NCBI GenBank assembly: GCA_018819225.1 | Contig: JAHJQN010000007.1 | Location: forward strand, 32,001 to 96,000 | DNA length: 64,000 nucleotides | Source of the DNA: Candidatus Micrarchaeota archaeon | GTDB taxonomy: Archaea > Micrarchaeota > Micrarchaeia > Norongarragalinales > SBBD01 | Direction: 5' to 3' | Part shown: in pieces, positions 2,867 through 61,593 of the stretch | Numbering within the stretch: the stretch's first letter is position 1 | Layout: every line of letters starts with the position of its first letter | The notes under the pieces: model-generated | What the model was told of the DNA's origin: nothing | The model's input: the letters and a program-made list of their open reading frames with translations, nothing else | The model's database searches: none | Program-made: the position numbers and the translations under genes

Positions 2867-2985
2867 GCTCCCTTCGTCTAGCTCGGTCAAGGACTCTGGC
2901 CTTTCGACTTTCCTGCTCCAAACATGCGCATGGGAATGGGAAAAAAAGAAAGCCAAAAACACGGGTTCAAATCCCGTAGGGAGCA
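2867..2985 (+). tRNA. tRNA-Glu(TTC) with 44-nt intron at 37/38 (2907-2950)
   Basis: Acceptor GCTCCCT/AGGGAGC; anticodon TTC at 2903-2905; T-arm ACGGG-TTCAAAT-CCCGT; BHB central helix CTTT/AAAG. C27-A43 mismatch noted. Confidence 0.93.
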
Positions 2986-2986
2986 T

Positions 2987-3008
2987 GTTCAAATCCTAAA
3001 CGAAGCAT
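2987..3008 (+). repeat. Degenerate tandem copy of tRNA-Glu 3' end
   Basis: GTTCAAATCCTAAACGAAGCAT vs GTTCAAATCCCGTAGGGAGCAT (2965-2986): 17/22, directly adjacent. Confidence 0.7.
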
Positions 3009-3018
3009 TGCCCGTAGA

Positions 3019-4071
3019 TTATTTACTTGATATGATTCGCTCGAACATTGCAGATGCCTCTTTATCGGACATGTGCTTTGGCGAAGACTTCATTAAAAAT
3101 GGGCACACGTCTTTAGCGTTACTTTGTTTACTATTATCTACAAGAAATTGAGCGACTCGAATGGCATCGATAATGGTGCCAGCTCCATTGATGCTGATTT
3201 CATCTTCAATTACTGAATGGATTGAAATCGGAGTTTTCCCGAACAATTCTCCTTCAATTAACAAATCAACTCGTTTGTGACCAGAAGGTTTTCCAGTATA
3301 TTGAAACGTTACGGATGGTCTTGCGTCTTTTTCGTCCAAATATTTTGAGAGTGCCTCTCGTTTCGAGCTCTCTTTTGTTTTCGACCTATGTAGTAAATTA
3401 TAATGGTCTGCATTCCCCCCTTGATTTTTTTGCTCCGATTTTGTGATCCGAATACCTCGCAGTTTTAAAAATTCTAAAAGAAGACGGTTCAACATCGTTG
3501 CACCCATTTGACTTTTTGTATCGTCACCTAATAAGACGAGATCACGTTCTTCGAATCGTTTTCTCCATTTAGAATCAGTAACTAAAGGGGTAGGAATGCA
3601 ATTGATATAGCTGCATCCTGCATTCAGCGCAGCTTCTGCATACCAACGGGTTGCCACATCACTTCCCGAGGGCACAAGATTAACAACCACTTGCGTATTC
3701 GTATCTTTGAGAATTTTAACAACATTCTCAACAGGAGCATTGCTTTCAGAAATGAAACTGTCGCGCATCTTCTCATGAATACCGTCAAGGGTAGGACCTC
3801 GATGAACTACCGCAGGGTGTTCCGTTGGAGATGTTATTTCACGAGTGACATTCTTTCCTAACGAAATGGCGTCCTGTAACTTTTTCCCCACCTTTCGTCG
3901 GTCTACATCAAAAGCCGCCACAAATTTAAGGTCGTTGACACGATAATTACCAATCAAGGGATGCATTAAGCCAATTTTTTCGTCGGGATTTTTCGCGTAG
4001 TACGAGACTCCTTCAACTAATGCTTTTGCTAGACTCCCTACTCCAACTATCGCCACCCGAAGGTTATCCAT
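3019..4071 (-). CDS. ino1: myo-Inositol-1-phosphate synthase family protein (divergent)
   Basis: VAIVGVG, FVAAFDVDRRKVG, YAEAALNAGCSYINCIP, GDDTKSQMGAT, IIDAIR. Confidence 0.88.
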   Translation of the reverse strand: MDNLRVAIVGVGSLAKALVEGVSYYAKNPDEKIGLMHPLIGNYRVNDLKFVAAFDVDRRKVGKKLQDAISLGKNVTREITSPTEHPAVVHRGPTLDGIHEKMRDSFISESNAPVENVVKILKDTNTQVVVNLVPSGSDVATRWYAEAALNAGCSYINCIPTPLVTDSKWRKRFEERDLVLLGDDTKSQMGATMLNRLLLEFLKLRGIRITKSEQKNQGGNADHYNLLHRSKTKESSKREALSKYLDEKDARPSVTFQYTGKPSGHKRVDLLIEGELFGKTPISIHSVIEDEISINGAGTIIDAIRVAQFLVDNSKQSNAKDVCPFLMKSSPKHMSDKEASAMFERIISSK

Positions 4072-4149
4072 AGTGATTAACCAAACGACAATTACTATTA
4101 ATAAAAGTTGAGATGCTAGTCTTTCTCAACGGGGGTATTGTAACTTGAT

Positions 4150-4170
4150 GTTTAAGACGCGTCGGGAGCG
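4150..4170 (+). repeat. Degenerate copy of tRNA-Glu 3' end (att-like)
   Basis: GTTTAAGACGCGTCGGGAGCG vs GTTCAAATCCCGTAGGGAGCA: 15/21 ungapped. Confidence 0.5.
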
Positions 4171-4177
4171 CTTAAGC

Positions 4178-4477
4178 CTAGTTCCGTAAGGCGATGGCAA
4201 GCATTTTCTCGAGGTCTCGGTAGTCGTTCTTGCGCTCGAGAAGGCAGGCAATAATGATGTTGGGCTTGATGACCGCGTAGATTAAGCGGGTTTCCTTCCC
4301 TTCCAGGCTTAAACGGACGCGGAATGCCCGCAAAAACCGCTTGGAATGGATGCGCTTGAAGCGATAAGGGTTCTCTTTGACCAAGTCGATTTTGCTGCCG
4401 ATGAGCTTCCGAGACTCCTTCCCGAGCTTTTTTACCTGATCCAAAAATAGCCGAGTGGTCCTGATTTGGAAGCTCAT
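4178..4477 (-). CDS. RelE/ParE-family toxin
   Basis: 99 aa, basic; 'FQIRTTRLFLDQVKKL..ENPY..FRVRL..RLIY..ERKNDY'; overlaps antitoxin stop. Confidence 0.8.
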   Translation of the reverse strand: MSFQIRTTRLFLDQVKKLGKESRKLIGSKIDLVKENPYRFKRIHSKRFLRAFRVRLSLEGKETRLIYAVIKPNIIIACLLERKNDYRDLEKMLAIALRN

Positions 4478-4728
4478 GCGGAAAGCGCCGCCTTCAGCTC
4501 TTCTTCACTTGCAAGCTGCTTACGTGCGATGCTGGTTTCCAAGATGTGGTCGATCAACGCAATCTCTATATCAGAAAGGGTTTCGTCAAATTGGCTTTTC
4601 TCGAAAACCTTTTCGCGCACGCTATCGTAAATCAAATCCTGGAGGTTTCGGTAGCCGAAGGTGTTCGCGTAGCTCCTTGCAGCCTTAAAGAGCTTCCTCG
4701 GGAATTTCAAGTTCACTTGGATAGCCAT
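4474..4728 (-). CDS. Antitoxin with ribbon-helix-helix N-terminus
   Basis: MAIQVNLKFPRKLFKAA..GYRNLQDLIYDSVREKVF, acidic C-terminus; ATGA overlap with toxin; start moved to ATG 4728. Confidence 0.75.
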   Translation of the reverse strand: MAIQVNLKFPRKLFKAARSYANTFGYRNLQDLIYDSVREKVFEKSQFDETLSDIEIALIDHILETSIARKQLASEEELKAALSA

Positions 4729-4809
4729 AGATAGCTTGGGATACCGTAGTATTAAAAGGATTGCGGAGGGCTTGTTCCCGTGAACGGAAGATTTGAAGTG
4801 CTCCTTGTT

Positions 4810-4824
4810 TCCCGTAGGGAGCAT
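4810..4824 (+). repeat. Exact 15-bp copy of tRNA-Glu 3' end (att-like)
   Basis: TCCCGTAGGGAGCAT, identical to 2972-2986. Confidence 0.85.
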
Positions 4825-4865
4825 CCTTCTTGAAGCGAAGTTGGCGCAACGTTTTCTTAAGATGC

Positions 4866-5618
4866 TCACTTCTTTATCGCAACGTGTTGAATAAAGTCCG
4901 CTCCGTATTTCGCAAAAGGCCGCTCGAAATCCCCGAACGTTTCGATCTTTGAAAACCCCGCGTTGGCGAGCAATTCAAGCATTTCATTTGTGCGAATCGG
5001 ATAGATGTCGAGAAACCAGTGGTGTTTTTTCCCGAAATAGCTGAACCGAATCAAGTCGTCTCGCCGAACCACCGGTATGACCTCGAAGTTCTCCCCGCAA
5101 TAAACGAATTTGTGCTTGCTCTTGTAACCCGTGTCGAGAATCATATCGTAGTTTCGGTGGTCAATGATGAGCATTCCGCGCGTTTTCAGCAAACGGTGAA
5201 TGCTAGAGAGTACGGATTCCCTATCCGGTCGGTCGAATAAGTGAGTAAACGAATTCCCGAGAAAAATGACGGCGTGGAAGCTGGCGGGTTTGAAACACGA
5301 ATCAAGTTTTTTCCAGTCCGCACGGACACAACGGAGTATCACGCGTTCCTTGGCTGCGTTATATTTTGCTCGCTCAAGCATGTGAGGACTCGCGTCTAAA
5401 CTCGTGACTTCAAACCCTTCCTTCGCCAAACGGATGCTATCGTAACCGGTTCCGCAGGCGACATCCAAAACATTCACGGCGTTCATACGACGCAAATGCT
5501 GAATGAAGAACGATCGCTCACCTCGCTTTCTTCGCCTCCAATCAATAAAGGAATCCCAAGCGTTGGCAACGTGTCGCGGGTACTGTTTCCAACCATGAGA
5601 CTTGCCCATATCGCCCAT
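4866..5618 (-). CDS. Glycine/sarcosine N-methyltransferase family (glycine betaine synthesis)
   Basis: WDSFIDW..R..GE..FF, VLDVACGTG, ADW, LGNSFTHLF, DHRNYDMILD.GY.SKH..YCG, TFGDF..DFIQHVA match recalled GSMT motifs along the full length. Confidence 0.85.
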   Translation of the reverse strand: MGDMGKSHGWKQYPRHVANAWDSFIDWRRRKRGERSFFIQHLRRMNAVNVLDVACGTGYDSIRLAKEGFEVTSLDASPHMLERAKYNAAKERVILRCVRADWKKLDSCFKPASFHAVIFLGNSFTHLFDRPDRESVLSSIHRLLKTRGMLIIDHRNYDMILDTGYKSKHKFVYCGENFEVIPVVRRDDLIRFSYFGKKHHWFLDIYPIRTNEMLELLANAGFSKIETFGDFERPFAKYGADFIQHVAIKK

Positions 5619-5722
5619 AACGATCTAAACAGATAGTAGGTATTGGAAGAATATCAAGTTATTTGGAAGAAAAATAGGCAAAAGGATAAATAGGCTTAAT
5701 GATTTCATTATTCTGACCACAC

Positions 5723-6709
5723 ATGCAGGAAAAGGCCATTCAAACCGTGCGTCCCGATTTGAGGGACAAGAAATTACTGAGGGAAATCGATTTTCATGCC
5801 CGTTTACCCTATTCCGAGCTGGCGCGAAGAATTGGAACAAGCAAGCAGGGCGCCGAATACAAGTTCAAGAACTTACTAAAGCAGGGGGTCATAAGGGGCT
5901 CCTACCCCGTCGTTAATGTTCCAAAGCTAGGATACCTGTATTGCAGATTGCTCGTGACGTTGCAGGGAGTCTCTGAAATACAAATCGAACGCATCGTGGA
6001 GGATTTGAAAAAGGATCCAAACGTATTCTGGCTGTTCACGATGGAAGGACGATACGACCTATTGGTGGTGTTTTGGGCTAAAAACGTATCCGATTTCAAG
6101 AGAATGGTCACGTCATTTCTTGAAAAACACGGCAAACATGTGAAAAGGAAGGTCGAAACGGTAACGACTGACGTATGCCACTTGTCCCATCGATACTTAT
6201 TGGAAGAAGGAGACAAACAGGAAGTAAGCATTCGCGAAACGGACGAGCGAATTAAAATCGATGAATTGGATAAGCGAATCCTGACCGTATTGGCTTCGGA
6301 TGCCCGAATTCCGTTAATTCAGCTGGCTTCGGCAGTTGATGCATTACCAAAAACGGTCGCGTATCGAATGAAACGCATGGAAAAAGAAAAACTTATTTTA
6401 TGCTATCGACCAATCATTGACCATTCCGTTCTTGGGTTGACGTATTACAAACTATTTGTCAACTTGAACTCGTACTCGCTGGTACAAATGCAGACCATCA
6501 AAAACTGGGTGAAGCAGAACAAATACGTGACGTACATCGTCGAAGGCTCGGGACTACCCACGGACTTGGATCTGGAGCTCATTGTTCCTTCGAATAAAGC
6601 CCTTTTCGAATTTATCCGCCAATTGAGGTTTAAATTCCCGAGGATCATCGGCGACTATTCGACTGTAGTATTCAAAGAAACAAGGAAAGTGCGGTATCTG
6701 CCGTTCTGA
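5723..6709 (+). CDS. Tandem (double) Lrp/AsnC transcriptional regulator
   Basis: Two HTH+RAM units (DLRDKKLLREIDFHARLPYSELA; DELDKRILTVLASDARIPLIQLA); divergent from the methyltransferase. Confidence 0.9.
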   Translation: MQEKAIQTVRPDLRDKKLLREIDFHARLPYSELARRIGTSKQGAEYKFKNLLKQGVIRGSYPVVNVPKLGYLYCRLLVTLQGVSEIQIERIVEDLKKDPNVFWLFTMEGRYDLLVVFWAKNVSDFKRMVTSFLEKHGKHVKRKVETVTTDVCHLSHRYLLEEGDKQEVSIRETDERIKIDELDKRILTVLASDARIPLIQLASAVDALPKTVAYRMKRMEKEKLILCYRPIIDHSVLGLTYYKLFVNLNSYSLVQMQTIKNWVKQNKYVTYIVEGSGLPTDLDLELIVPSNKALFEFIRQLRFKFPRIIGDYSTVVFKETRKVRYLPF

Positions 6710-6796
6710 TGACATCGTTAGCAACGCTCGGATTCGGATATTTCTTCGATTACCGCACGGATGAGGGCGCGATTTGCACTTTTTTCACTTGAGTTG

Positions 6797-6813
6797 CAAG
6801 TTCCGTAGGGAGC
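6797..6813 (+). repeat. Near-exact copy of tRNA-Glu 3' end (att-like)
   Basis: CAAGTTCCGTAGGGAGC vs CAAATCCCGTAGGGAGC: 15/17. Confidence 0.75.
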
Positions 6814-6945
6814 GGGATCCATTTTTTCAATAGCGTAGAAGTCGAATTCCGCAGAGCAATAGGCGGTATTCAACCCAATGTATAAATACCAAAATCCGAT
6901 TCGGGTTATGAAAGTGAAGTAAGTATACGGAGGAGGGGATAACAT

Positions 6946-7284
6946 ATGAAGAAATTTATGGTAGTATACAAGGCACCCGCGTCCGCAATGGAAAAAATGC
7001 ACGATTCGAGCCCGGAAGAAATGAAAAAGGGAATGGAGGCTTGGATGGTTTGGGCGGAAAAATGCGGTAGTGGCTTAGTCGATATGGGAACCCCGCTTGG
7101 AAACGCACAAAAACTAACCGAAACAGGGAGTTCGCCTAGTGTCAATAATGTGATGGGGTATTCCGTTTTGCAAGCAGAATCAATGGAGGGCGCAAAGAAG
7201 TTATTGAAAGGCCATCCTCATCTTGGCTGGGGTAAAGGGTGCGAAATAGAAGTGCTCGAGTCCCTTCCGAAGCCCGGAAAATAA
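6946..7284 (+). CDS. YciI/DGPF-like dimeric alpha-beta barrel protein
   Basis: MKKFMVVY..AWMVW..LVDMGTPL..GYSVLQAESMEGA..HPHL..IEV; GGAGG SD. Confidence 0.75.
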   Translation: MKKFMVVYKAPASAMEKMHDSSPEEMKKGMEAWMVWAEKCGSGLVDMGTPLGNAQKLTETGSSPSVNNVMGYSVLQAESMEGAKKLLKGHPHLGWGKGCEIEVLESLPKPGK

Positions 7285-7319
7285 ATAGTAGTTCGCATTG
7301 AGTAAAAACGGCATTTCAA

Positions 7320-7715
7320 CTACTTGAAATAGGTTTTCAGCGGTTCCCAGTAGTGATCGTGCCAACCTTGCGAGATGGAGGCGTGACATTCGGAAGGTAC
7401 TCCGGACTGCGTAAATGTAAGTTTCGTTCCGCCGGTCACTTTTTTTAAGGAAAACACGGCTCGCGAGTAATGGTCTTCCGGCCAATGATCCATCACGCAC
7501 ATCCAAGACTGCACGATTTTTTTGTCTGGAATCAACTCCAAGTTGGTGCCGACGAGGCCGTCCTCATAAGCGGAAAAGGGCCCGCCTACCTTGCGAGTCA
7601 TTTTTGCCGGCGATCCCGTAAATTTGGCGTGCTGGCGGGAATCCACGAGGGCCTCATAGACCGCATGCGGAGAAGCGTTGATAAGTACCGTTTGGCGAAT
7701 CGACTTGGTTTTCAT
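7320..7715 (-). CDS. SRPBCC/AHSA1 domain protein
   Basis: ASPHAVYEAL, KVGGPFS, PDKKIVQSW, GGTKLTFTQSGVP, GWHDHYW. Confidence 0.9.
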   Translation of the reverse strand: MKTKSIRQTVLINASPHAVYEALVDSRQHAKFTGSPAKMTRKVGGPFSAYEDGLVGTNLELIPDKKIVQSWMCVMDHWPEDHYSRAVFSLKKVTGGTKLTFTQSGVPSECHASISQGWHDHYWEPLKTYFK

Positions 7716-7875
7716 AAACTAAACACCCCCGATCATTCGAAACGTCGTAAGGACGCTAATACCGTTGAGGTTTGAGTATATAATGAATCAGTTTAGAATG
7801 ACTTACGATTGATAATGTCCAAGACAAGTGCGCATTCAAAACCCTTAAGTAGGGGAGGTAAAATACGTACTCGTT

Positions 7876-9138
7876 ATGCGAATGAAAGCTGGGCGTTGGA
7901 TGATCATCAGCTTGTTTTTACTGGGATGCATTCAAGGAGATCCGGCTGCAACGACGTCCTCCATTCAAGAAACGGGCACGCCGTTACCCACGGAGGAAGT
8001 GACGGTTCAGGCCACGAGCACCATGCAAACAACGCCCGCGGTTTCGGCGACTCCGGAAATCACTCCTACAATAAAAGAAACGCCTTCACCGGAACCCGCA
8101 CGCGATCCGGACGCCGAGTACTATTACTGGATTCAAGAAGAGTATGCGGATGTGGATTTGCCGAGTTGCGAGGGAAAGGCGTTTACGCACCCGCCCTCCG
8201 GTTGGAACGACTTCGTGAAACTGATTCCGCTCGGAAATCTTTTCCCGCCGGAGCACACGATTCCCACGCACCATATGTACATTCGCTTGGAGTACGCGAA
8301 GCAGGTCGATTTTCAAGCCATTGGGGATATCCGAATCCTTGAAATCGTCCGCTACCGTTACCCCGAGCAAAACGATGAAGATTACATGTTTACGTTTGCG
8401 CTCTGCGATCAGGTATACGGGTATTTCATTCACATCCGCCAACTATCGGACAAGGTCATGAAAGCGTTTGATGAAGGAGCATGCGAAGAAGACAGTTACG
8501 GCGACGGAAAATACCAGACGTGCACGAGAAAAGTGGATGTGGAAGTAAAAGGTGGGGAGTATTTGGGCCGGGTCGGAAAGAAGGACACTGGAGGATACGA
8601 TCTCGGGGTGTACGACTTGAGGAAGCCATTGAAATGGGCGAACCCCGCGAGAAATCAGGGACGCGCGATGTTGTTGGTTTGCCCACTGGATTATTACGCG
8701 GACGGGGTTCGGAAACAAATGTATGAAAAGATCGAGAGGGAAGAAGAGCCGCGTTGCGGGAAAGTGAATCAAGACGTAAACGGAACGTTGAAAGGCAATT
8801 GGTACCATGAGAGCGCGAACCCGGAAGGCCATGGCGAGTGGAACACGGAATTGGCGTTTGCCGAAGACAATAACGAGCCCACCACGTACGCGGTATCCAT
8901 AGGAGGAATATTTACGGACGCGGGGCGGGTTGATTTCAAACCAAAGCATTCGGGAACCATTAATCGGGCGTTTGAGGAAGTAAAACCAGATGGAAAAGCG
9001 TATTGCTATGAAGGCGAAGGGAAGAACGGAAGCGTTATCATCGAAATGGAGAGCGAGACCACGTTGAAGATCGAGAAGAAGATGGGATCGTGCGGTTCAA
9101 GTCCCTCGTTCAATGCGCCGTACACGTATCATCGGTAG
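7876..9138 (+). CDS. Lipoprotein-like surface protein with a possible degenerate M23-like fold
   Basis: LLGC lipobox-like motif, T/P-rich linker, 'HTIPTHHMY..YFIHI..VKGGEYLGRVG..VCPLDYY'. Confidence 0.6.
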   Translation: MRMKAGRWMIISLFLLGCIQGDPAATTSSIQETGTPLPTEEVTVQATSTMQTTPAVSATPEITPTIKETPSPEPARDPDAEYYYWIQEEYADVDLPSCEGKAFTHPPSGWNDFVKLIPLGNLFPPEHTIPTHHMYIRLEYAKQVDFQAIGDIRILEIVRYRYPEQNDEDYMFTFALCDQVYGYFIHIRQLSDKVMKAFDEGACEEDSYGDGKYQTCTRKVDVEVKGGEYLGRVGKKDTGGYDLGVYDLRKPLKWANPARNQGRAMLLVCPLDYYADGVRKQMYEKIEREEEPRCGKVNQDVNGTLKGNWYHESANPEGHGEWNTELAFAEDNNEPTTYAVSIGGIFTDAGRVDFKPKHSGTINRAFEEVKPDGKAYCYEGEGKNGSVIIEMESETTLKIEKKMGSCGSSPSFNAPYTYHR

Positions 9139-9139
9139 A

Positions 9140-10591
9140 CTATCCCGGCAGCTTATCCACGTTTAAAAGATTGGTCCATGTCTTTCCGCCATCCGCGGAC
9201 TTCCAAACGTACGCATAATTCGCTATCATGAATACGGTTTTCGAATCGTCGGGATGCCATACGATGTGGGACACGTAGACCTTCGCGTCCCGCACGCCAG
9301 GAGGAAGGGGGCTGAGTTCCTGCCAGGTCAGGCCGCCATCCGCACTTTCCATTAAACTATTGCGCACTAAGGTATAGCCAAGAAGGTGGTTACCGGACGC
9401 GTCGTGCGGGTCGTATCGCGCCACATCCAAATAGAACGGGGTTTCATGGAACGTGCTGCCGCCATCCAACGTCACGAAACTTTTCTGATCGTCGTACGTC
9501 GAGCCTTCATCAAAACGCAATGGTTTCACAAAAAAGTGATTGAATTGATTAAAGGAAACATCTCCCCCGAAAATCGATCGGTATTTCTCGGGAAGGTTTT
9601 TGGCGAGCGCAGACCACGACGCGCCTCCGTCACGGGAAACCACGGGACCGAATTGCACGGGAAGCATCACTTCCAAATGAGAGCCGTCTGGAGAAACGGC
9701 GTGGTCGTGGGAATTCGTCAATGCCAGCACGTGCCGTGAATTTTCCGGGTTCACGAAAATGGCGATTCCTTGAAGACCAACCAACAGACCGGTGGGAAGT
9801 TCATCCCACGTCTCGCCGCCGTTTACGGTTTTGTAAAAAACCCCGTCATAGACTGTTTTCCAGTTGGGATCAGGATCCGAAATGGTGGGAGCGGTACTGT
9901 CCACGCCATAGTAAATGATCTGCGGATTCGTTGGATCGAATGCCAGTGCGCCCGTTCCGCCGGCGTTCATGCGATCTTTAAGGAGTTGGTGCCATGATTC
10001 GCCGACATCCAAGGACTCCCACACCCCCGCGGTTTCGGAATAGGGATCGTAAATGGTTCCGGTAGACGTATCCGCGCGGGCAAACAATATGCGATCGGAA
10101 TCCGTGGGATCGATGATCATTTGGCCGACGTCTCCATAACAGTATTTGCCCGGGTTTTCGGAATCGGGATACGCGCGCAAACCGTTGTTGATCGATTTCC
10201 ACGAAATACCGCCGTTGGTGGTTTTCAAAATGCCGGCGCCCTCCATTCCGATATACATTATTTGCGGATTCTTGGAATCAATCACCAAGGACTTCCCGGG
10301 ATGGAACGACTGGCGTTCTTGAGAGCAAGGCAAGCCGTTCTCCATCAAATGCTGGGAGCTGGGGCTGTACGTGGGAGACGACGCTCCCGACGGTGAAGGG
10401 GCTAACGAAGGGGAAGGGGTTTCGGAAGCACGTAGGGTGGGTTCGGGAGAAGGAGTTAATGAAGGCGGGAGTACCGTAGGAGTTTGAGTCGGTGAGGAAG
10501 AAGGGGAATCGACGGGAGGCGATTGAACGCAACCAAATGCAAGAAACGCGATGAGAAGAATCAGCCAAGAACGACGATGCATGAAAATCAT
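9140..10591 (-). CDS. Lipoprotein-like BNR/Asp-box beta-propeller (sortilin/GH74-like)
   Basis: LAFGC, S/P/T linker, about seven S/T-x-D/N-G-G-x-T/S-W repeats. Confidence 0.85.
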   Translation of the reverse strand: MIFMHRRSWLILLIAFLAFGCVQSPPVDSPSSSPTQTPTVLPPSLTPSPEPTLRASETPSPSLAPSPSGASSPTYSPSSQHLMENGLPCSQERQSFHPGKSLVIDSKNPQIMYIGMEGAGILKTTNGGISWKSINNGLRAYPDSENPGKYCYGDVGQMIIDPTDSDRILFARADTSTGTIYDPYSETAGVWESLDVGESWHQLLKDRMNAGGTGALAFDPTNPQIIYYGVDSTAPTISDPDPNWKTVYDGVFYKTVNGGETWDELPTGLLVGLQGIAIFVNPENSRHVLALTNSHDHAVSPDGSHLEVMLPVQFGPVVSRDGGASWSALAKNLPEKYRSIFGGDVSFNQFNHFFVKPLRFDEGSTYDDQKSFVTLDGGSTFHETPFYLDVARYDPHDASGNHLLGYTLVRNSLMESADGGLTWQELSPLPPGVRDAKVYVSHIVWHPDDSKTVFMIANYAYVWKSADGGKTWTNLLNVDKLPG

Positions 10592-10677
10592 CCAAATGAA
10601 AGACTTCGCCGGAACTTAAAAACGTGCGGAGGTCTTGGAAAAGAGATGTTTTTATTCCATGAAAGAGAAGTGAACGT

Positions 10678-11778
10678 ATGCGGCAGGTAAAGAAAAGAAA
10701 AATCGCGAAAGTGGAAAGAAAGGAGTCGCGATGGCCAAACCCTCAAACGGTTCCCATTATCGCGATTATTTTCCTGTTGTTGCCGTTTCTCGCCATGGCG
10801 ATGGCGTGGTATGGGCAAACGGGAGCGCCGTGGGGATCCGATCTCGCCGTGCAGATCGCCAAGTTTCAGGGATTAACCTACGAAGAGCTCGTGGCGTTGC
10901 CGTACGCGCACAATTACGAGGCCTTTGAAGTCAACGGCGAGTTGCTGGTCAGCGACGAAAGCCGGGCGGCGTGGAAATCGTATTATGAAGGGTATCCGAG
11001 CGGGTTGACGTTCATTCTCCTGTTTCCGCTGTCCCTGCTATTTCCGTTGGAGTTGGCCGCGAGTCTCGCGGTGTTTATTGCGTTATTCATTGTGGCATTA
11101 TTGGTTTACGAGGCGAGCGGACGCGAATGGATGGCGCCGTTGTTGTTGGTATGGGGAAGCAAGTACGTGCTCTCGAATTCCATTGGAGGGGGGTTGCCGC
11201 TGGTTCTGATCAGCGCGTTTGTGCTGGCGTTTCTGATGGTGAAGAATACTGGTTTTCGATTGCTTCTCGTGCTGCTCGGTGCGTTTACGCACCAATGGGG
11301 CGTGTTCTTCATGGGCGCATTGATGGGCGTATCGTTGCTCATGCGATGGATGGGAACAGGAGCCGCACTGGCGTTGCCGACACCGTTGCAGGCGCCCTTT
11401 GAACGCCTTCAATTCTTTTCGAATACGCATGCGGGATCCGCATTGCTCATGTTTCCGGCCGGGGCACTCGCACTGTTCGAGCTGAGAACGTTGTTTAAGG
11501 AAAATAAGGAAGCGGAATTGTGGATTTTTGCGGTTGGAATGGGAACCATTGCGGCGTTGTGGAACGAAAGAACGTTTTTGATGGTGATTCCCGTGCTGGC
11601 GGTATTGGCGGGAAAGGCGTTTCGTAAACTACCGGTTTGGGGAAAGCGCGCGGTCTGGATATACTTGCTGGCGTTCTCCATTTACAACATCGTGAGTTTG
11701 ACGGATTTCTTTACGGGCATGCTATCCGCTTTCCGGAATGAAGAATTCCTGTGCCGAGTGCTCGAGCAGTGCAAATGA
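10678..11778 (+). CDS. Polytopic membrane protein, possibly GT-C glycosyltransferase-like
   Basis: About 10 TM segments; first-loop GSD, YPSG and FTHQ motifs. Confidence 0.6.
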   Translation: MRQVKKRKIAKVERKESRWPNPQTVPIIAIIFLLLPFLAMAMAWYGQTGAPWGSDLAVQIAKFQGLTYEELVALPYAHNYEAFEVNGELLVSDESRAAWKSYYEGYPSGLTFILLFPLSLLFPLELAASLAVFIALFIVALLVYEASGREWMAPLLLVWGSKYVLSNSIGGGLPLVLISAFVLAFLMVKNTGFRLLLVLLGAFTHQWGVFFMGALMGVSLLMRWMGTGAALALPTPLQAPFERLQFFSNTHAGSALLMFPAGALALFELRTLFKENKEAELWIFAVGMGTIAALWNERTFLMVIPVLAVLAGKAFRKLPVWGKRAVWIYLLAFSIYNIVSLTDFFTGMLSAFRNEEFLCRVLEQCK

Positions 11779-11784
11779 AAATCG

Positions 11785-12201
11785 TCAGCGTCTCCGGGCG
11801 CCTTTCCTGCGCCTCCAATTATGGAACTCGTGAAACTCGACTTCCACTTTCTCCGCAGTATCCGAACGCTTCTTGAACGCGTAAATGAAGATCACGAGCG
11901 AGATGAGGAGAAGCGAATCCGTCCATGCCCCTGCACACGTTCCGCCAAAACATATTTGGGCTTCACGCAAAAACAATGCGAGGGCCATGATGCCGATCCC
12001 CAAATAGAACACGAGGGAAATGCGCCAGTCCCAACGCACTTTTCCGCGGCGTTTCTGGGAATAGACGACGAAAACGTAAATTAAAAGATACAACAATACG
12101 AGTAGGGAAACGACGAGCGTCAACGCGCCGACCAAATCAAACCCCGAGGCCACGGAAACCATAGACATCTCTCGACCAACCCGGGAAGCGATTCCCGGCA
12201 T
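11785..12201 (-). CDS. Small 3-TM membrane protein (true start may be 12162 or 12168)
   Basis: Three hydrophobic helices and a basic tail. Confidence 0.6.
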   Translation of the reverse strand: MPGIASRVGREMSMVSVASGFDLVGALTLVVSLLVLLYLLIYVFVVYSQKRRGKVRWDWRISLVFYLGIGIMALALFLREAQICFGGTCAGAWTDSLLLISLVIFIYAFKKRSDTAEKVEVEFHEFHNWRRRKGARRR

Positions 12202-12236
12202 ACAAGCAAACTCTGAAACGGTATAAAAAGGGTGCG

Positions 12237-12866
12237 TTAAGGCCGCGAGAGAAGCACGCGCGCTGGAGAGGCTTCTGCACCCGCTACGAGCAGCGGCAAC
12301 CCCATGAACGTGTACGGACCCGGGGAAATACGGCGGAGGTTCAAGCCCTCAAATACGGCAATGCCCGCCTTCAAAAGCGTCTCGTGCACGCGTTGATTCC
12401 CGGAATGAAATCGTTGAACGGACAAGGAATCAACGCCTAACGTGCGCACTCCCTTCATTTTCAGAAAACGCGCGGCATCCAACGACACGTGAACGTAATC
12501 GGCGTGGAAGCGATTGAAACCGCGAAGCGAATTCCGAGTTTTAAACAGGACAATCTCGTTTTTTTTAATGCGGAAGTTTTGTAAATCACTCGCGGTAATA
12601 CCGGACGTCACGTGCGTCAAATCCAGGACGCGGCACGCGCCATGAAAATGCGCCAACGCCAATTGGTCAACGCTTTTTTTACTCCAGAGCACGTGCTTGG
12701 GCGCGTCCACATGCGTCCCCGTATGGCTGCCGATACGCAACTCGGACAGATTCGTGGAAGCGCGAGGACGGCGGCTGTAAAACCGGAGGGAAGGACGCGG
12801 GTTTCCGGGATAAATAGGCATGCGCGAAGAAATGGGAAGCGACACATCGTAAAGCATGAAAATCAC
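12237..12866 (-). CDS. Cyclase family (kynurenine formamidase-like) metal hydrolase
   Basis: YPGNP, HTGTHVDAPKH, LGVDSLS, HETLL, EGL, GAEASPAR. Confidence 0.92.
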   Translation of the reverse strand: MIFMLYDVSLPISSRMPIYPGNPRPSLRFYSRRPRASTNLSELRIGSHTGTHVDAPKHVLWSKKSVDQLALAHFHGACRVLDLTHVTSGITASDLQNFRIKKNEIVLFKTRNSLRGFNRFHADYVHVSLDAARFLKMKGVRTLGVDSLSVQRFHSGNQRVHETLLKAGIAVFEGLNLRRISPGPYTFMGLPLLVAGAEASPARVLLSRP

Positions 12867-31733: not shown

Positions 31734-32375
31734 TCAAGACGTATCCACCTCGTACGGATGGGAAGCCAGGCGCCGGATTTCTTTCGCCCGCTCCTTTCCG
31801 ATTCCTTCCGCGGATTGCAGTGTTTTTTCATCCGCCGTAAAAATACGTTGAATGGTGCCCAGTTTTCTTAAAAGCGATTTCGCGTTATGCGGGCCAATCG
31901 TAGGAATGGATTCGATCACGAATTGCTGCTGTTCGGAAACGGAAAAGGATTTCTTTTCGTAACGAAGCGCCAGCTCTTTTTTCCCGTTCGTTTTTTGAAG
32001 CGCGAGCACGTGAATGAATTCCGCGAGCTTTTCTTCAGAATCAAAATGAAAAATCGGAATGCGGAAATCCGTTGCTAACGCGATCTCCGCTCCCAAAAGT
32101 GCGCGGGGTTGCAGGCGACCGTATTTTGCGCCCACGATGGCCATAATAGGAGACTCGAATTGAGCGGCAAGATCTTTCGCCTGAAAAAAGAGGCGGCCGT
32201 CGATAATACTGGATTCGAAATCCGCCGCGGTCTTTCGCTCGAGGGCGACTTGGTCACTGATAATATAGTCGCCGATCTCCAGGCGCGTCGACTTCAAGCG
32301 AATGCCGAGTGAAAAGAGCTTTCGTGCCGTAGGGCTCTTGAGTTCGCGATCATCCATTAATATTTCCAGGTCCAT
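31734..32375 (-). CDS. Stand-alone ERCC4/XPF endonuclease + (HhH)2
   Basis: DDRE, GDY, ERKT..DF..SIIDGRL..Q, IPTIGP, EGIG; start moved to ATG 32375. Confidence 0.93.
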   Translation of the reverse strand: MDLEILMDDRELKSPTARKLFSLGIRLKSTRLEIGDYIISDQVALERKTAADFESSIIDGRLFFQAKDLAAQFESPIMAIVGAKYGRLQPRALLGAEIALATDFRIPIFHFDSEEKLAEFIHVLALQKTNGKKELALRYEKKSFSVSEQQQFVIESIPTIGPHNAKSLLRKLGTIQRIFTADEKTLQSAEGIGKERAKEIRRLASHPYEVDTS

Positions 32376-61374: not shown

Positions 61375-61483
61375 GGGAGGGTGGGCTAGCCTGGCATGCT
61401 TTCAGCTTTGGGTCCTCACCTGCTTTTACGAAGCAGTACGGGCAAAACAGCTGAAGACCTGAGTTCGAATCTCAGCCCTCCCA
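61375..61483 (+). tRNA. tRNA-Pro(TGG) with 36-nt intron at 37/38 (61413-61448)
   Basis: GGGAGGG/CCCTCCC-A; TCAGC/GCTGA; anticodon at 61409-61411; BHB helix TTTG/CAAA; CTGAG-TTCGAAT-CTCAG. Confidence 0.94.
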
Positions 61484-61593
61484 CTGCCGGCGGCGGGAAC
61501 CCTGGGTTTCCCCTTGAGCCAACTGGTCGCCCCCATTCCTACGCAAAGCGTTTCCCGAACCCGTTTTATTCCCTTGCAAACAGAAGAAGTACC

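Follow-up and report, generated by a model that had tools for sequence, protein, structure and literature searches.

Tandem copies of a tRNA-Glu 3′ end in a Micrarchaeota-like archaeon are probably scars of integrated elements that lost their integrase genes

Why does the 3′ end of a tRNA-Glu gene recur several times, in the same orientation, in the few kilobases downstream of that gene in a Micrarchaeota-like DPANN archaeon? The stretch analyzed here (64,000 nt, hereafter the window; positions 32,001 to 96,000 of contig JAHJQN010000007.1) belongs to a metagenome-assembled genome of 1.37 Mb in 8 contigs (G000), which is ~90% complete. A first-pass annotation of the window proposed either that very small cassettes were captured repeatedly by a trans-acting recombinase or that successive larger elements decayed. 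We consider it probable that the region downstream of the tRNA represents tandem remnants of tRNA-integrating elements that have lost their integrase genes. Small elements would have been inserted serially into the 3′ end of the tRNA-Glu gene by the site-specific recombination of a tyrosine integrase; every insertion would have restored the tRNA and left, at its far end, an attachment site (attR) composed of an element-derived arm and a tRNA-identical core of ~11–15 nt. The integrase genes would later have been deleted, and the cargo between the attachment-site (att) scars would have remained. The elements themselves would have belonged to one lineage-wide archaeal integrase family carrying a C-terminal zinc ribbon.

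The tRNA-Glu(UUC) gene is located at positions 2867–2985 on the plus strand (Rfam RF00005, 45.8 bits) and contains an intron of ~47 nt in its anticodon arm. The UUC anticodon was read from the sequence. Two related genomes (G002 and G007) have orthologues of this gene that contain no intron and are called as tRNA-Glu(ttc); a default ARAGORN run on the stretch made no call for the intron-bearing gene. The repeated core corresponds to the last ~15 nt of the tRNA and includes one base past the discriminator (2972–2986, plus strand), which would be the attL side. All copies of this sequence described below lie on the same strand as the tRNA. The first of them, S1 (2987–3008), abuts the tRNA, begins at the T-loop and is degenerate (17/22 identical positions); its earlier identification was confirmed, as it is the sole non-self match with ≤5 mismatches to the 22-mer in the whole genome. 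The copy annotated at 4810 was likewise confirmed. The 15-mer of the tRNA end has two genomic occurrences, the tRNA itself and positions 4810–4824 (15/15), and the latter, together with an arm at 4786–4809, forms the unit R2 (4786–4824, plus strand), with a junction of the type ‘TTTCCCG’. The copy reported near 6797 proved to be an exact 11-nt core (11/11) at 6803–6813 on the plus strand, which together with a conserved arm makes up the unit R3 (6718–6813); the frame of this arm runs on the minus strand, with its stop at 6718–6720.

When both strands of the genome (2.75 Mb together) were counted, the 11-mer core occurred three times (in the tRNA, at 4812 and at 6803), on the plus strand only and within 3.8 kb, compared with a chance expectation of ~0.65 occurrences. 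The copy placed at 4150 fared differently. Scored as a tRNA match alone it is not significant (15/22, with 71 equally good sites genome-wide), whereas as a 30-nt unit of arm and core (S2, 4141–4170, plus strand) it agrees with the R3 unit at 6785–6814 in 21 of 30 positions, which is the joint best non-self match (2 such sites genome-wide). On the basis of this similarity, S2 is probably a real but decayed R3-type copy. Matches of equal quality, whose frequent occurrence elsewhere in the genome would have spoken against the repeats, were confined to the locus for the 11-mer, the 15-mer and the 22-mer. No further copy of the tRNA 3′ end was found from 6815 to 12300, and a candidate fifth copy near 7740–7760 was rejected because no match reached 10 of 13 core bases. 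A word AGCNTAG, seen 15–19 nt past each core in a MAFFT alignment, is likely to be an alignment artefact.

The copies are thus unique, clustered and on one strand, as remnants of serial integration would be. A census of all 36 called tRNAs of the genome points in the same direction: when only copies >150 nt away were counted, a tRNA was followed downstream by a close copy of its 3′ end in six cases (involving four tRNAs), and an upstream copy was seen in one case. Could the copies instead be chance matches or an assembly artefact? The genome was assembled from a metagenome, and the locus is known from one source contig only. However, the 11-mer is confined to the locus, the same architecture is present in two independently assembled genomes (see below) and a 15-nt repeat is not long enough to cause misassembly. 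The confinement of the 11-mer and the two parallel arrays effectively refute this explanation.

All copies fall between genes supported by Pfam or NCBIfam, in agreement with their earlier description as intergenic, although automatic gene calling extends two open reading frames (ORFs) over the copies at 4810 and 6803. The public gene calls place these ORFs, of 116 amino acids (aa) (4474–4824) and 75 aa (6718–6945), on the minus strand, and the start codon of the 116-aa ORF is the complement of the tRNA-end copy. Both are probably annotation artefacts.

We next compared this locus with relatives. The gene order cutA–htpX–tRNA-Glu is conserved across the family, and comparable arrays were found in two genomes, G004, which belongs to the same genus as G001, and G003, which represents a third genus. 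In G001, the homologue of a gene encoding 138 aa, located in our window at 11785–12201 (minus strand; tblastn and blastn synteny), follows tRNA-Glu within 0.25 kb; in G004, the same gene sits after the array. Judged from this synteny, the 138-aa gene appears to mark the outer limit of the DNA that is extra in G000. Compared with G001, G004 contains 1.6 kb of extra DNA that spans exactly the interval from the tRNA end to the last 3′-end copy, and G001 therefore represents the empty site. The G004 array has the same layout as that of the window, with an abutting degenerate copy (L016 2179–2194), a middle copy and a last copy, and its copies carry the tRNA variant of G004 itself, which differs in one T-stem base. 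The bases immediately after its last copy match the flank of the tRNA in G001, not that in G004, as expected of an attR.

The array of G003, which emerged from a survey of ~20 tRNA-Glu loci of the order, is located at tRNA-Glu(CUC) and consists of an abutting scar (L176 4902–4887), a ‘TTTCNCG’-type copy and an ‘AGTTCG’-type copy; these copies hold the acceptor sequence of its own tRNA-Glu(CUC), and one site is doubled, 26 nt apart. The same two junction types are therefore present in all three arrays, and G000 and G004 resemble each other in the arms to the left of their second and third copies, whereas the cargo is wholly unrelated among the three. An empty site that breaks exactly at the tRNA end and at the last copy of G004, two additional arrays in other genera that each contain the sequence of their own tRNA, and entirely different cargo all support the idea of tandem element remnants. 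Gene-content breakpoints in relatives, which had been expected to coincide with the repeats, did so in the comparison of G004 with G001 but not in G000 itself, where only the tRNA-side breakpoint is exact and 5 kb more separate the last copy from the conserved neighbour. An apparent abutting scar in G007 was rejected because it is part of a hairpin motif found also after tRNA-Val in G008. This motif of ~50 nt with a G5/C5 hairpin, which is common to G007 (L017, after tRNA-Glu) and G008 (L035, after tRNA-Val), both of genus g4, may act as a terminator or represent one end of a mobile element.

In these three genomes the cores co-vary with the local tRNA, which would also be expected if the units were functional elements unrelated to recombination, such as tRNA-like RNA ends, processing signals or regulatory sites matching the tRNA-Glu 3′ end. 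In addition, R2 can pair like an acceptor stem in its minimum-free-energy structure (4794–4824), in which a 7-nt stretch before the 4810 copy pairs with the acceptor-strand copy. However, this mini-helix is not significant and is not conserved in G004, and none of the units folded better as a single strand than shuffled sequences (z from –0.94 to +0.86). The only Rfam family matching the units or the locus in the stretch was tRNA, and the copies occur without the rest of the tRNA half. We regard such a function as highly improbable, since the formation of att sites directly yields the co-variation of core and tRNA, and since the empty site of G001 indicates that the whole block is dispensable. 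Split-tRNA and primer-binding-site explanations were also rejected, as the copies lack the remainder of the 3′ half and their complement shows no CCA match.

The search for tyrosine recombinases (PF00589) suggested by the first-pass annotation yielded one gene in G000, adjacent to tRNA-Ser(CGA) on another contig; neither an SSV-type match (PF16795) nor a credible serine recombinase (PF00239) was found in this genome, and the tRNA-Glu array contained no match to any of the three profiles. The tRNA-Ser(CGA) locus is itself a stack (contig C2, L031 7180–10254), in which a 306-aa recombinase is followed by a TPR gene and then, at +2012 and +2929, by two same-strand repeats of the tRNA 3′ end, with the local G+C content falling to 0.33. 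In an alignment, the recombinase lacks the N-terminal 135–150 aa present in the 375–470-aa integrases of relatives, and hence looks like an intermediate stage of decay. That a sister array retains a truncated integrase is in accordance with the loss of integrase genes proposed for tRNA-Glu.

The integrase family, which is characterized by a C-terminal zinc ribbon, is widespread in archaea and common in the relatives. The ORF of the tRNA-Ser recombinase ends within the tRNA-Ser 3′ end, where its stop is formed by the complement of the T-loop, and the integrase at tRNA-Thr of G001 and the database homologue P0084 read through the tRNA core in the same frame. The integrase genes of the tRNA-Ser, G001 tRNA-Thr and P0084 elements carry the att core within their own 3′ ends; for the P0084 element, no attR was found within 10 kb. 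Four shorter database homologues (P0090, P0092, P0095 and P0097; 280–354 aa) have no zinc ribbon and terminate in similar ‘...WQVG...’ tails shortly past the catalytic tyrosine. They may represent integrated forms in which another position of the gene was cut.

We examined whether the arms of the tRNA-Glu units continue this integrase frame. When read on the minus strand, R3-type units from G000, G004 and G003 extend the core as open frames of 13–30 codons (counted beyond the four core-encoded codons; ~30 in G000) with related peptides, and the first tRNA-Ser copy likewise continues the core as an open frame. The similarity between the arm peptides of G000 and G004 was matched by 0.28% of 5000 column shuffles. 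One plus-strand frame of the arms scores similarly to the minus-strand frame, but contains stops. Integrase ORFs that read through tRNA cores, together with R3-type arms sharing that frame, support an origin of the region from integrated elements. In at least some members of the family, passage of the frame through the att core would cause integration to remove the last few dozen codons, and the conserved arm to the left of the final copy would probably be such a tail; on the shared frame and the related peptides, it is plausible that the R3 arm is the severed 3′ end of an integrase gene.

The G+C content provides a further line of evidence, as it dips to 0.38–0.49 across positions 3000–7800, compared with 0.51 for the genome and 0.52–0.57 for the flanks, which again suggests inserted DNA. 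Downstream of cutA, htpX and tRNA-Glu, the copies divide the region into modules of 0.55–2 kb with genes on both strands and intergenic gaps of 33–237 nt, and the gene content of the modules is as the first-pass annotation described. Module 1 contains a myo-inositol-1-phosphate-synthase-like gene (3019–4071, minus strand; PF01658, TIGR03450) and has the lowest G+C content of the region (0.38–0.44). Module 2 consists of two small minus-strand genes that overlap by 4 nt (99 aa, 4178–4477; 86 aa, 4474–4734) and encode a putative ParE/RelE-type toxin with its partner; the full-length ParE-like and Gp49 matches on which this assignment is based are weak and below threshold. A homologous pair is present in G028, without flanking copies. 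Module 3 comprises a glycine/sarcosine N-methyltransferase-like gene (4866–5618, minus strand; Methyltransf_25, and NF051855 with 256 bits, below the cut-off) and a tandem double Lrp/AsnC regulator (5723–6709, plus strand) with two HTH_24/HTH_AsnC stretches and AsnC_trans_reg. Homologues of both occur elsewhere in G001, again without flanking copies (the Lrp gene being 74% identical). A separate observation concerns G002, in which an isolated 58-nt remnant (G002:C105, L024 4305–4362) is 83% identical to the 3′ end of the double-Lrp gene; no gene body lies upstream of it, and it adjoins two unannotated opposite-strand ORFs (206 and 166 aa).

Beyond R3 lie a weakly YCII-like gene (6946–7284, plus strand) and an AHSA1/SRPBCC gene (7320–7715, minus strand), whose membership of the island is uncertain because no recognizable copy follows them. 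Three genes without clear function, on mixed strands (7876–11778), occupy the interval up to the conserved 138-aa gene.

Several observations weigh against an origin of the region from decayed elements. First, searches of the three tRNA-Glu arrays with an integrase-family profile and tblastn revealed no trace of an integrase body, so that the loss of these genes is deduced rather than seen; recurrent weak tblastn matches in G003 were rejected, as they lie inside an unrelated secreted protein. Second, two results speak against the proposed tail origin of the arms: nucleotide differences between the arms show no third-position excess, and the arm peptides matched a profile of 91 family integrases no better than shuffled sequences and were not placed in its tail region. 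For this reason, we do not claim a likeness of the arms to the helix that follows the zinc ribbon. Third, the modules are very small. Fourth, two junction types in identical order in three genera with unrelated cargo are not predicted by independent decay. Fifth, the degree of decay does not follow the distance from the tRNA, as correctly stated in the first-pass annotation, and the tRNA-proximal copies are the most decayed, which is the opposite of what is expected if the newest insertion lies nearest. Finally, 5 kb without a scar separate the last copy of G000 from the conserved neighbour.

The shared junction order, the proximal decay and the unscarred 5 kb, together with the abutting scar next to the tRNA in all three tRNA-Glu arrays, leave limited room for ongoing mobilization in trans, in which the modules would be att-flanked, integrase-less cassettes that an integrase encoded elsewhere still moves or swaps at the repeats. 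The conservation of arms and junction types in three genera despite unrelated cargo, cores that always match the local tRNA, the doubled site of G003 and the abundance of family integrases in relatives are all compatible with this possibility. A GATTTG-like word also recurs in several arms, including those of the integrase-bearing tRNA-Ser array, although it was chosen after looking at the sequences and is only suggestive. However, the sole tyrosine recombinase of G000 is truncated and located at another tRNA (a genome that is ~90% complete could hide one), and SSV-type and serine recombinases are lacking in this genome. Moreover, no module was found again with the same flanking sites, and the homologues of the toxin–antitoxin (TA) and methyltransferase–Lrp pairs occur without them.

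Searches for related sites in other collections also failed to support exchange. In pattern scans for arm-plus-core units, the genome collection yielded G004 alone and the viral collection nothing related (one unrelated match); the metagenome scans gave no match for R3, and 112 matches to a 17-mer of R2, which we attribute to chance because they showed neither further similarity nor a nearby tRNA-Glu. A BLAST search of the R3 unit against 68 genomes of the order returned nothing significant and missed even G004. An exact-protein look-up for population variants retrieved the source metagenome contig only, without variant assemblies. Taken together, we consider continued movement in trans unlikely. 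A broader form of the idea, in which the modules would be live cassettes of a DPANN-wide exchange and zinc-ribbon integrases of other elements would recognize the conserved units of arm and core and shuffle small cargo modules into and out of tRNA-Glu genes, seems to us slightly less likely still. If true, cassette capture would have an archaeal counterpart anchored at tRNA genes, and it would become clear why site types and their order are shared by three genera without shared cargo.

The remnant explanation, which we prefer, is consistent with what is documented in archaea. A review of archaeal elements (PMC8371274) describes tandem integration at tRNA genes, also by ‘cryptic’ elements that contain no integrase, and the loss of integrases, citing Krupovic et al. 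2019 for Thaumarchaeota and She et al. 2002 for Sulfolobales; it also reports archaeal att cores of 8–13 bp. The precedent of tandem integration, short att sites and integrase loss therefore supports our interpretation. The array resembles those elements in that direct repeats of the tRNA 3′ end with short cores bound the insert, several lie at one tRNA, the target tRNA carries an intron and the absence of an integrase is put down to gene loss. It differs from them in its DPANN/Micrarchaeota-type host, a lineage unmentioned in the review, in modules of 0.55–2 kb, in the absence of an integrase from three arrays and in junction types shared across genera. With regard to the features by which integrated tRNA elements are recognized, repeats bounding an insert next to an intact tRNA, an empty site and deviant G+C content were found, but an integrase inside was not; the arrays are therefore remnants at best, not complete elements.

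Integration of the SSV type splits the integrase gene into a short N-terminal piece and a catalytic part (PMC8371274). The tRNA-Ser, G001 tRNA-Thr and P0084 elements resemble these type I, or ‘suicidal’, elements because their core lies in the integrase frame. Unlike in the SSV type, however, the core follows the catalytic domain and zinc ribbon on their 3′ side, where integration would remove only a short C-terminal tail, and PF16795 matches nothing in G000. The kind of event is thus known, and the novelty lies in the little-studied lineage, the very small size of the modules and the position of the core at the 3′ end of the integrase frame.

Two other systems invite comparison. In the literature on Streptococcus ICESt, cis-mobilizable elements (CIMEs) are att-flanked, tandemly arranged elements without recombination genes that are regarded as deletion derivatives of integrase-bearing elements; CIMEs excise or move once a related integrase-bearing element has integrated beside them. 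The arrays described here are likewise flanked by att sites and devoid of recombination and transfer genes, whereas the archaeal host, the integrase family and the much smaller modules are different. Integrons carry an IntI-type integrase, an attI site and a promoter beside the array; their cassettes are mostly promoterless and co-oriented, and their attC sites form imperfect hairpins. A row of small modules, each ending in a related site, and a TA-like module, as in chromosomal integrons, recall such an array. However, the integron-like capture in trans suggested by the first-pass annotation was not supported as stated, because genes are in mixed orientation with gaps of 33–237 nt, no recombinase or attI is adjacent, the sites are copies of a tRNA 3′ end without hairpin potential and the sole recombinase is truncated. 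Its other suggestion, remnants of successive elements, was supported by the empty site, the two additional arrays, the sister array at tRNA-Ser and the lower G+C content.

DPANN archaea combine a very small genome with a dependence on other cells, which raises the question of how they gain and retain accessory genes. Recurrent landing pads in one Micrarchaeota-like family appear to include tRNA-Glu and at least tRNA-Ser, and at tRNA-Glu cargo would have become fixed while the integration machinery was discarded. This cargo includes a TA-like pair and genes of osmolyte-type metabolism, namely the inositol-phosphate synthase and the glycine/sarcosine-methyltransferase-like enzyme with its regulator. 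The results also draw attention to a widespread zinc-ribbon integrase family, the frame of which is able to overlap its own att site near the 3′ end; if true, such 3′-overlapping att sites would add a variation to the ‘self-cutting integrase’ theme. With regard to annotation, the locus illustrates that standard tRNA finders miss an intron-bearing target and that gene callers run probably spurious ORFs across the scars.

Additional observations were made at other tRNA genes. The intron mode of ARAGORN detected an intron-bearing tRNA at 61375–61484 of the window that the default run had missed; the anticodons assigned in this mode are unreliable, as tRNA-Glu was mislabelled as Arg. Elsewhere in G000, a near-exact copy of its own 3′ end lies at +1946 downstream of tRNA-Ser(UGA) (contig C2, ~331480), and two such copies lie at +8041 and +8336 downstream of tRNA-Met (contig C3, ~12475); these are probably further integrated elements or their remnants, in a genome that encodes no integrase besides the one at tRNA-Ser(CGA). 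In G008, tRNA-Val(GAC) is occupied by a 7.2-kb element (G008:C57, L035 10616–17900) whose flanking direct repeat measures at least 45 nt and reaches past the tRNA; the open frame of its integrase begins within the tRNA, an arrangement resembling the classic N-terminal split.

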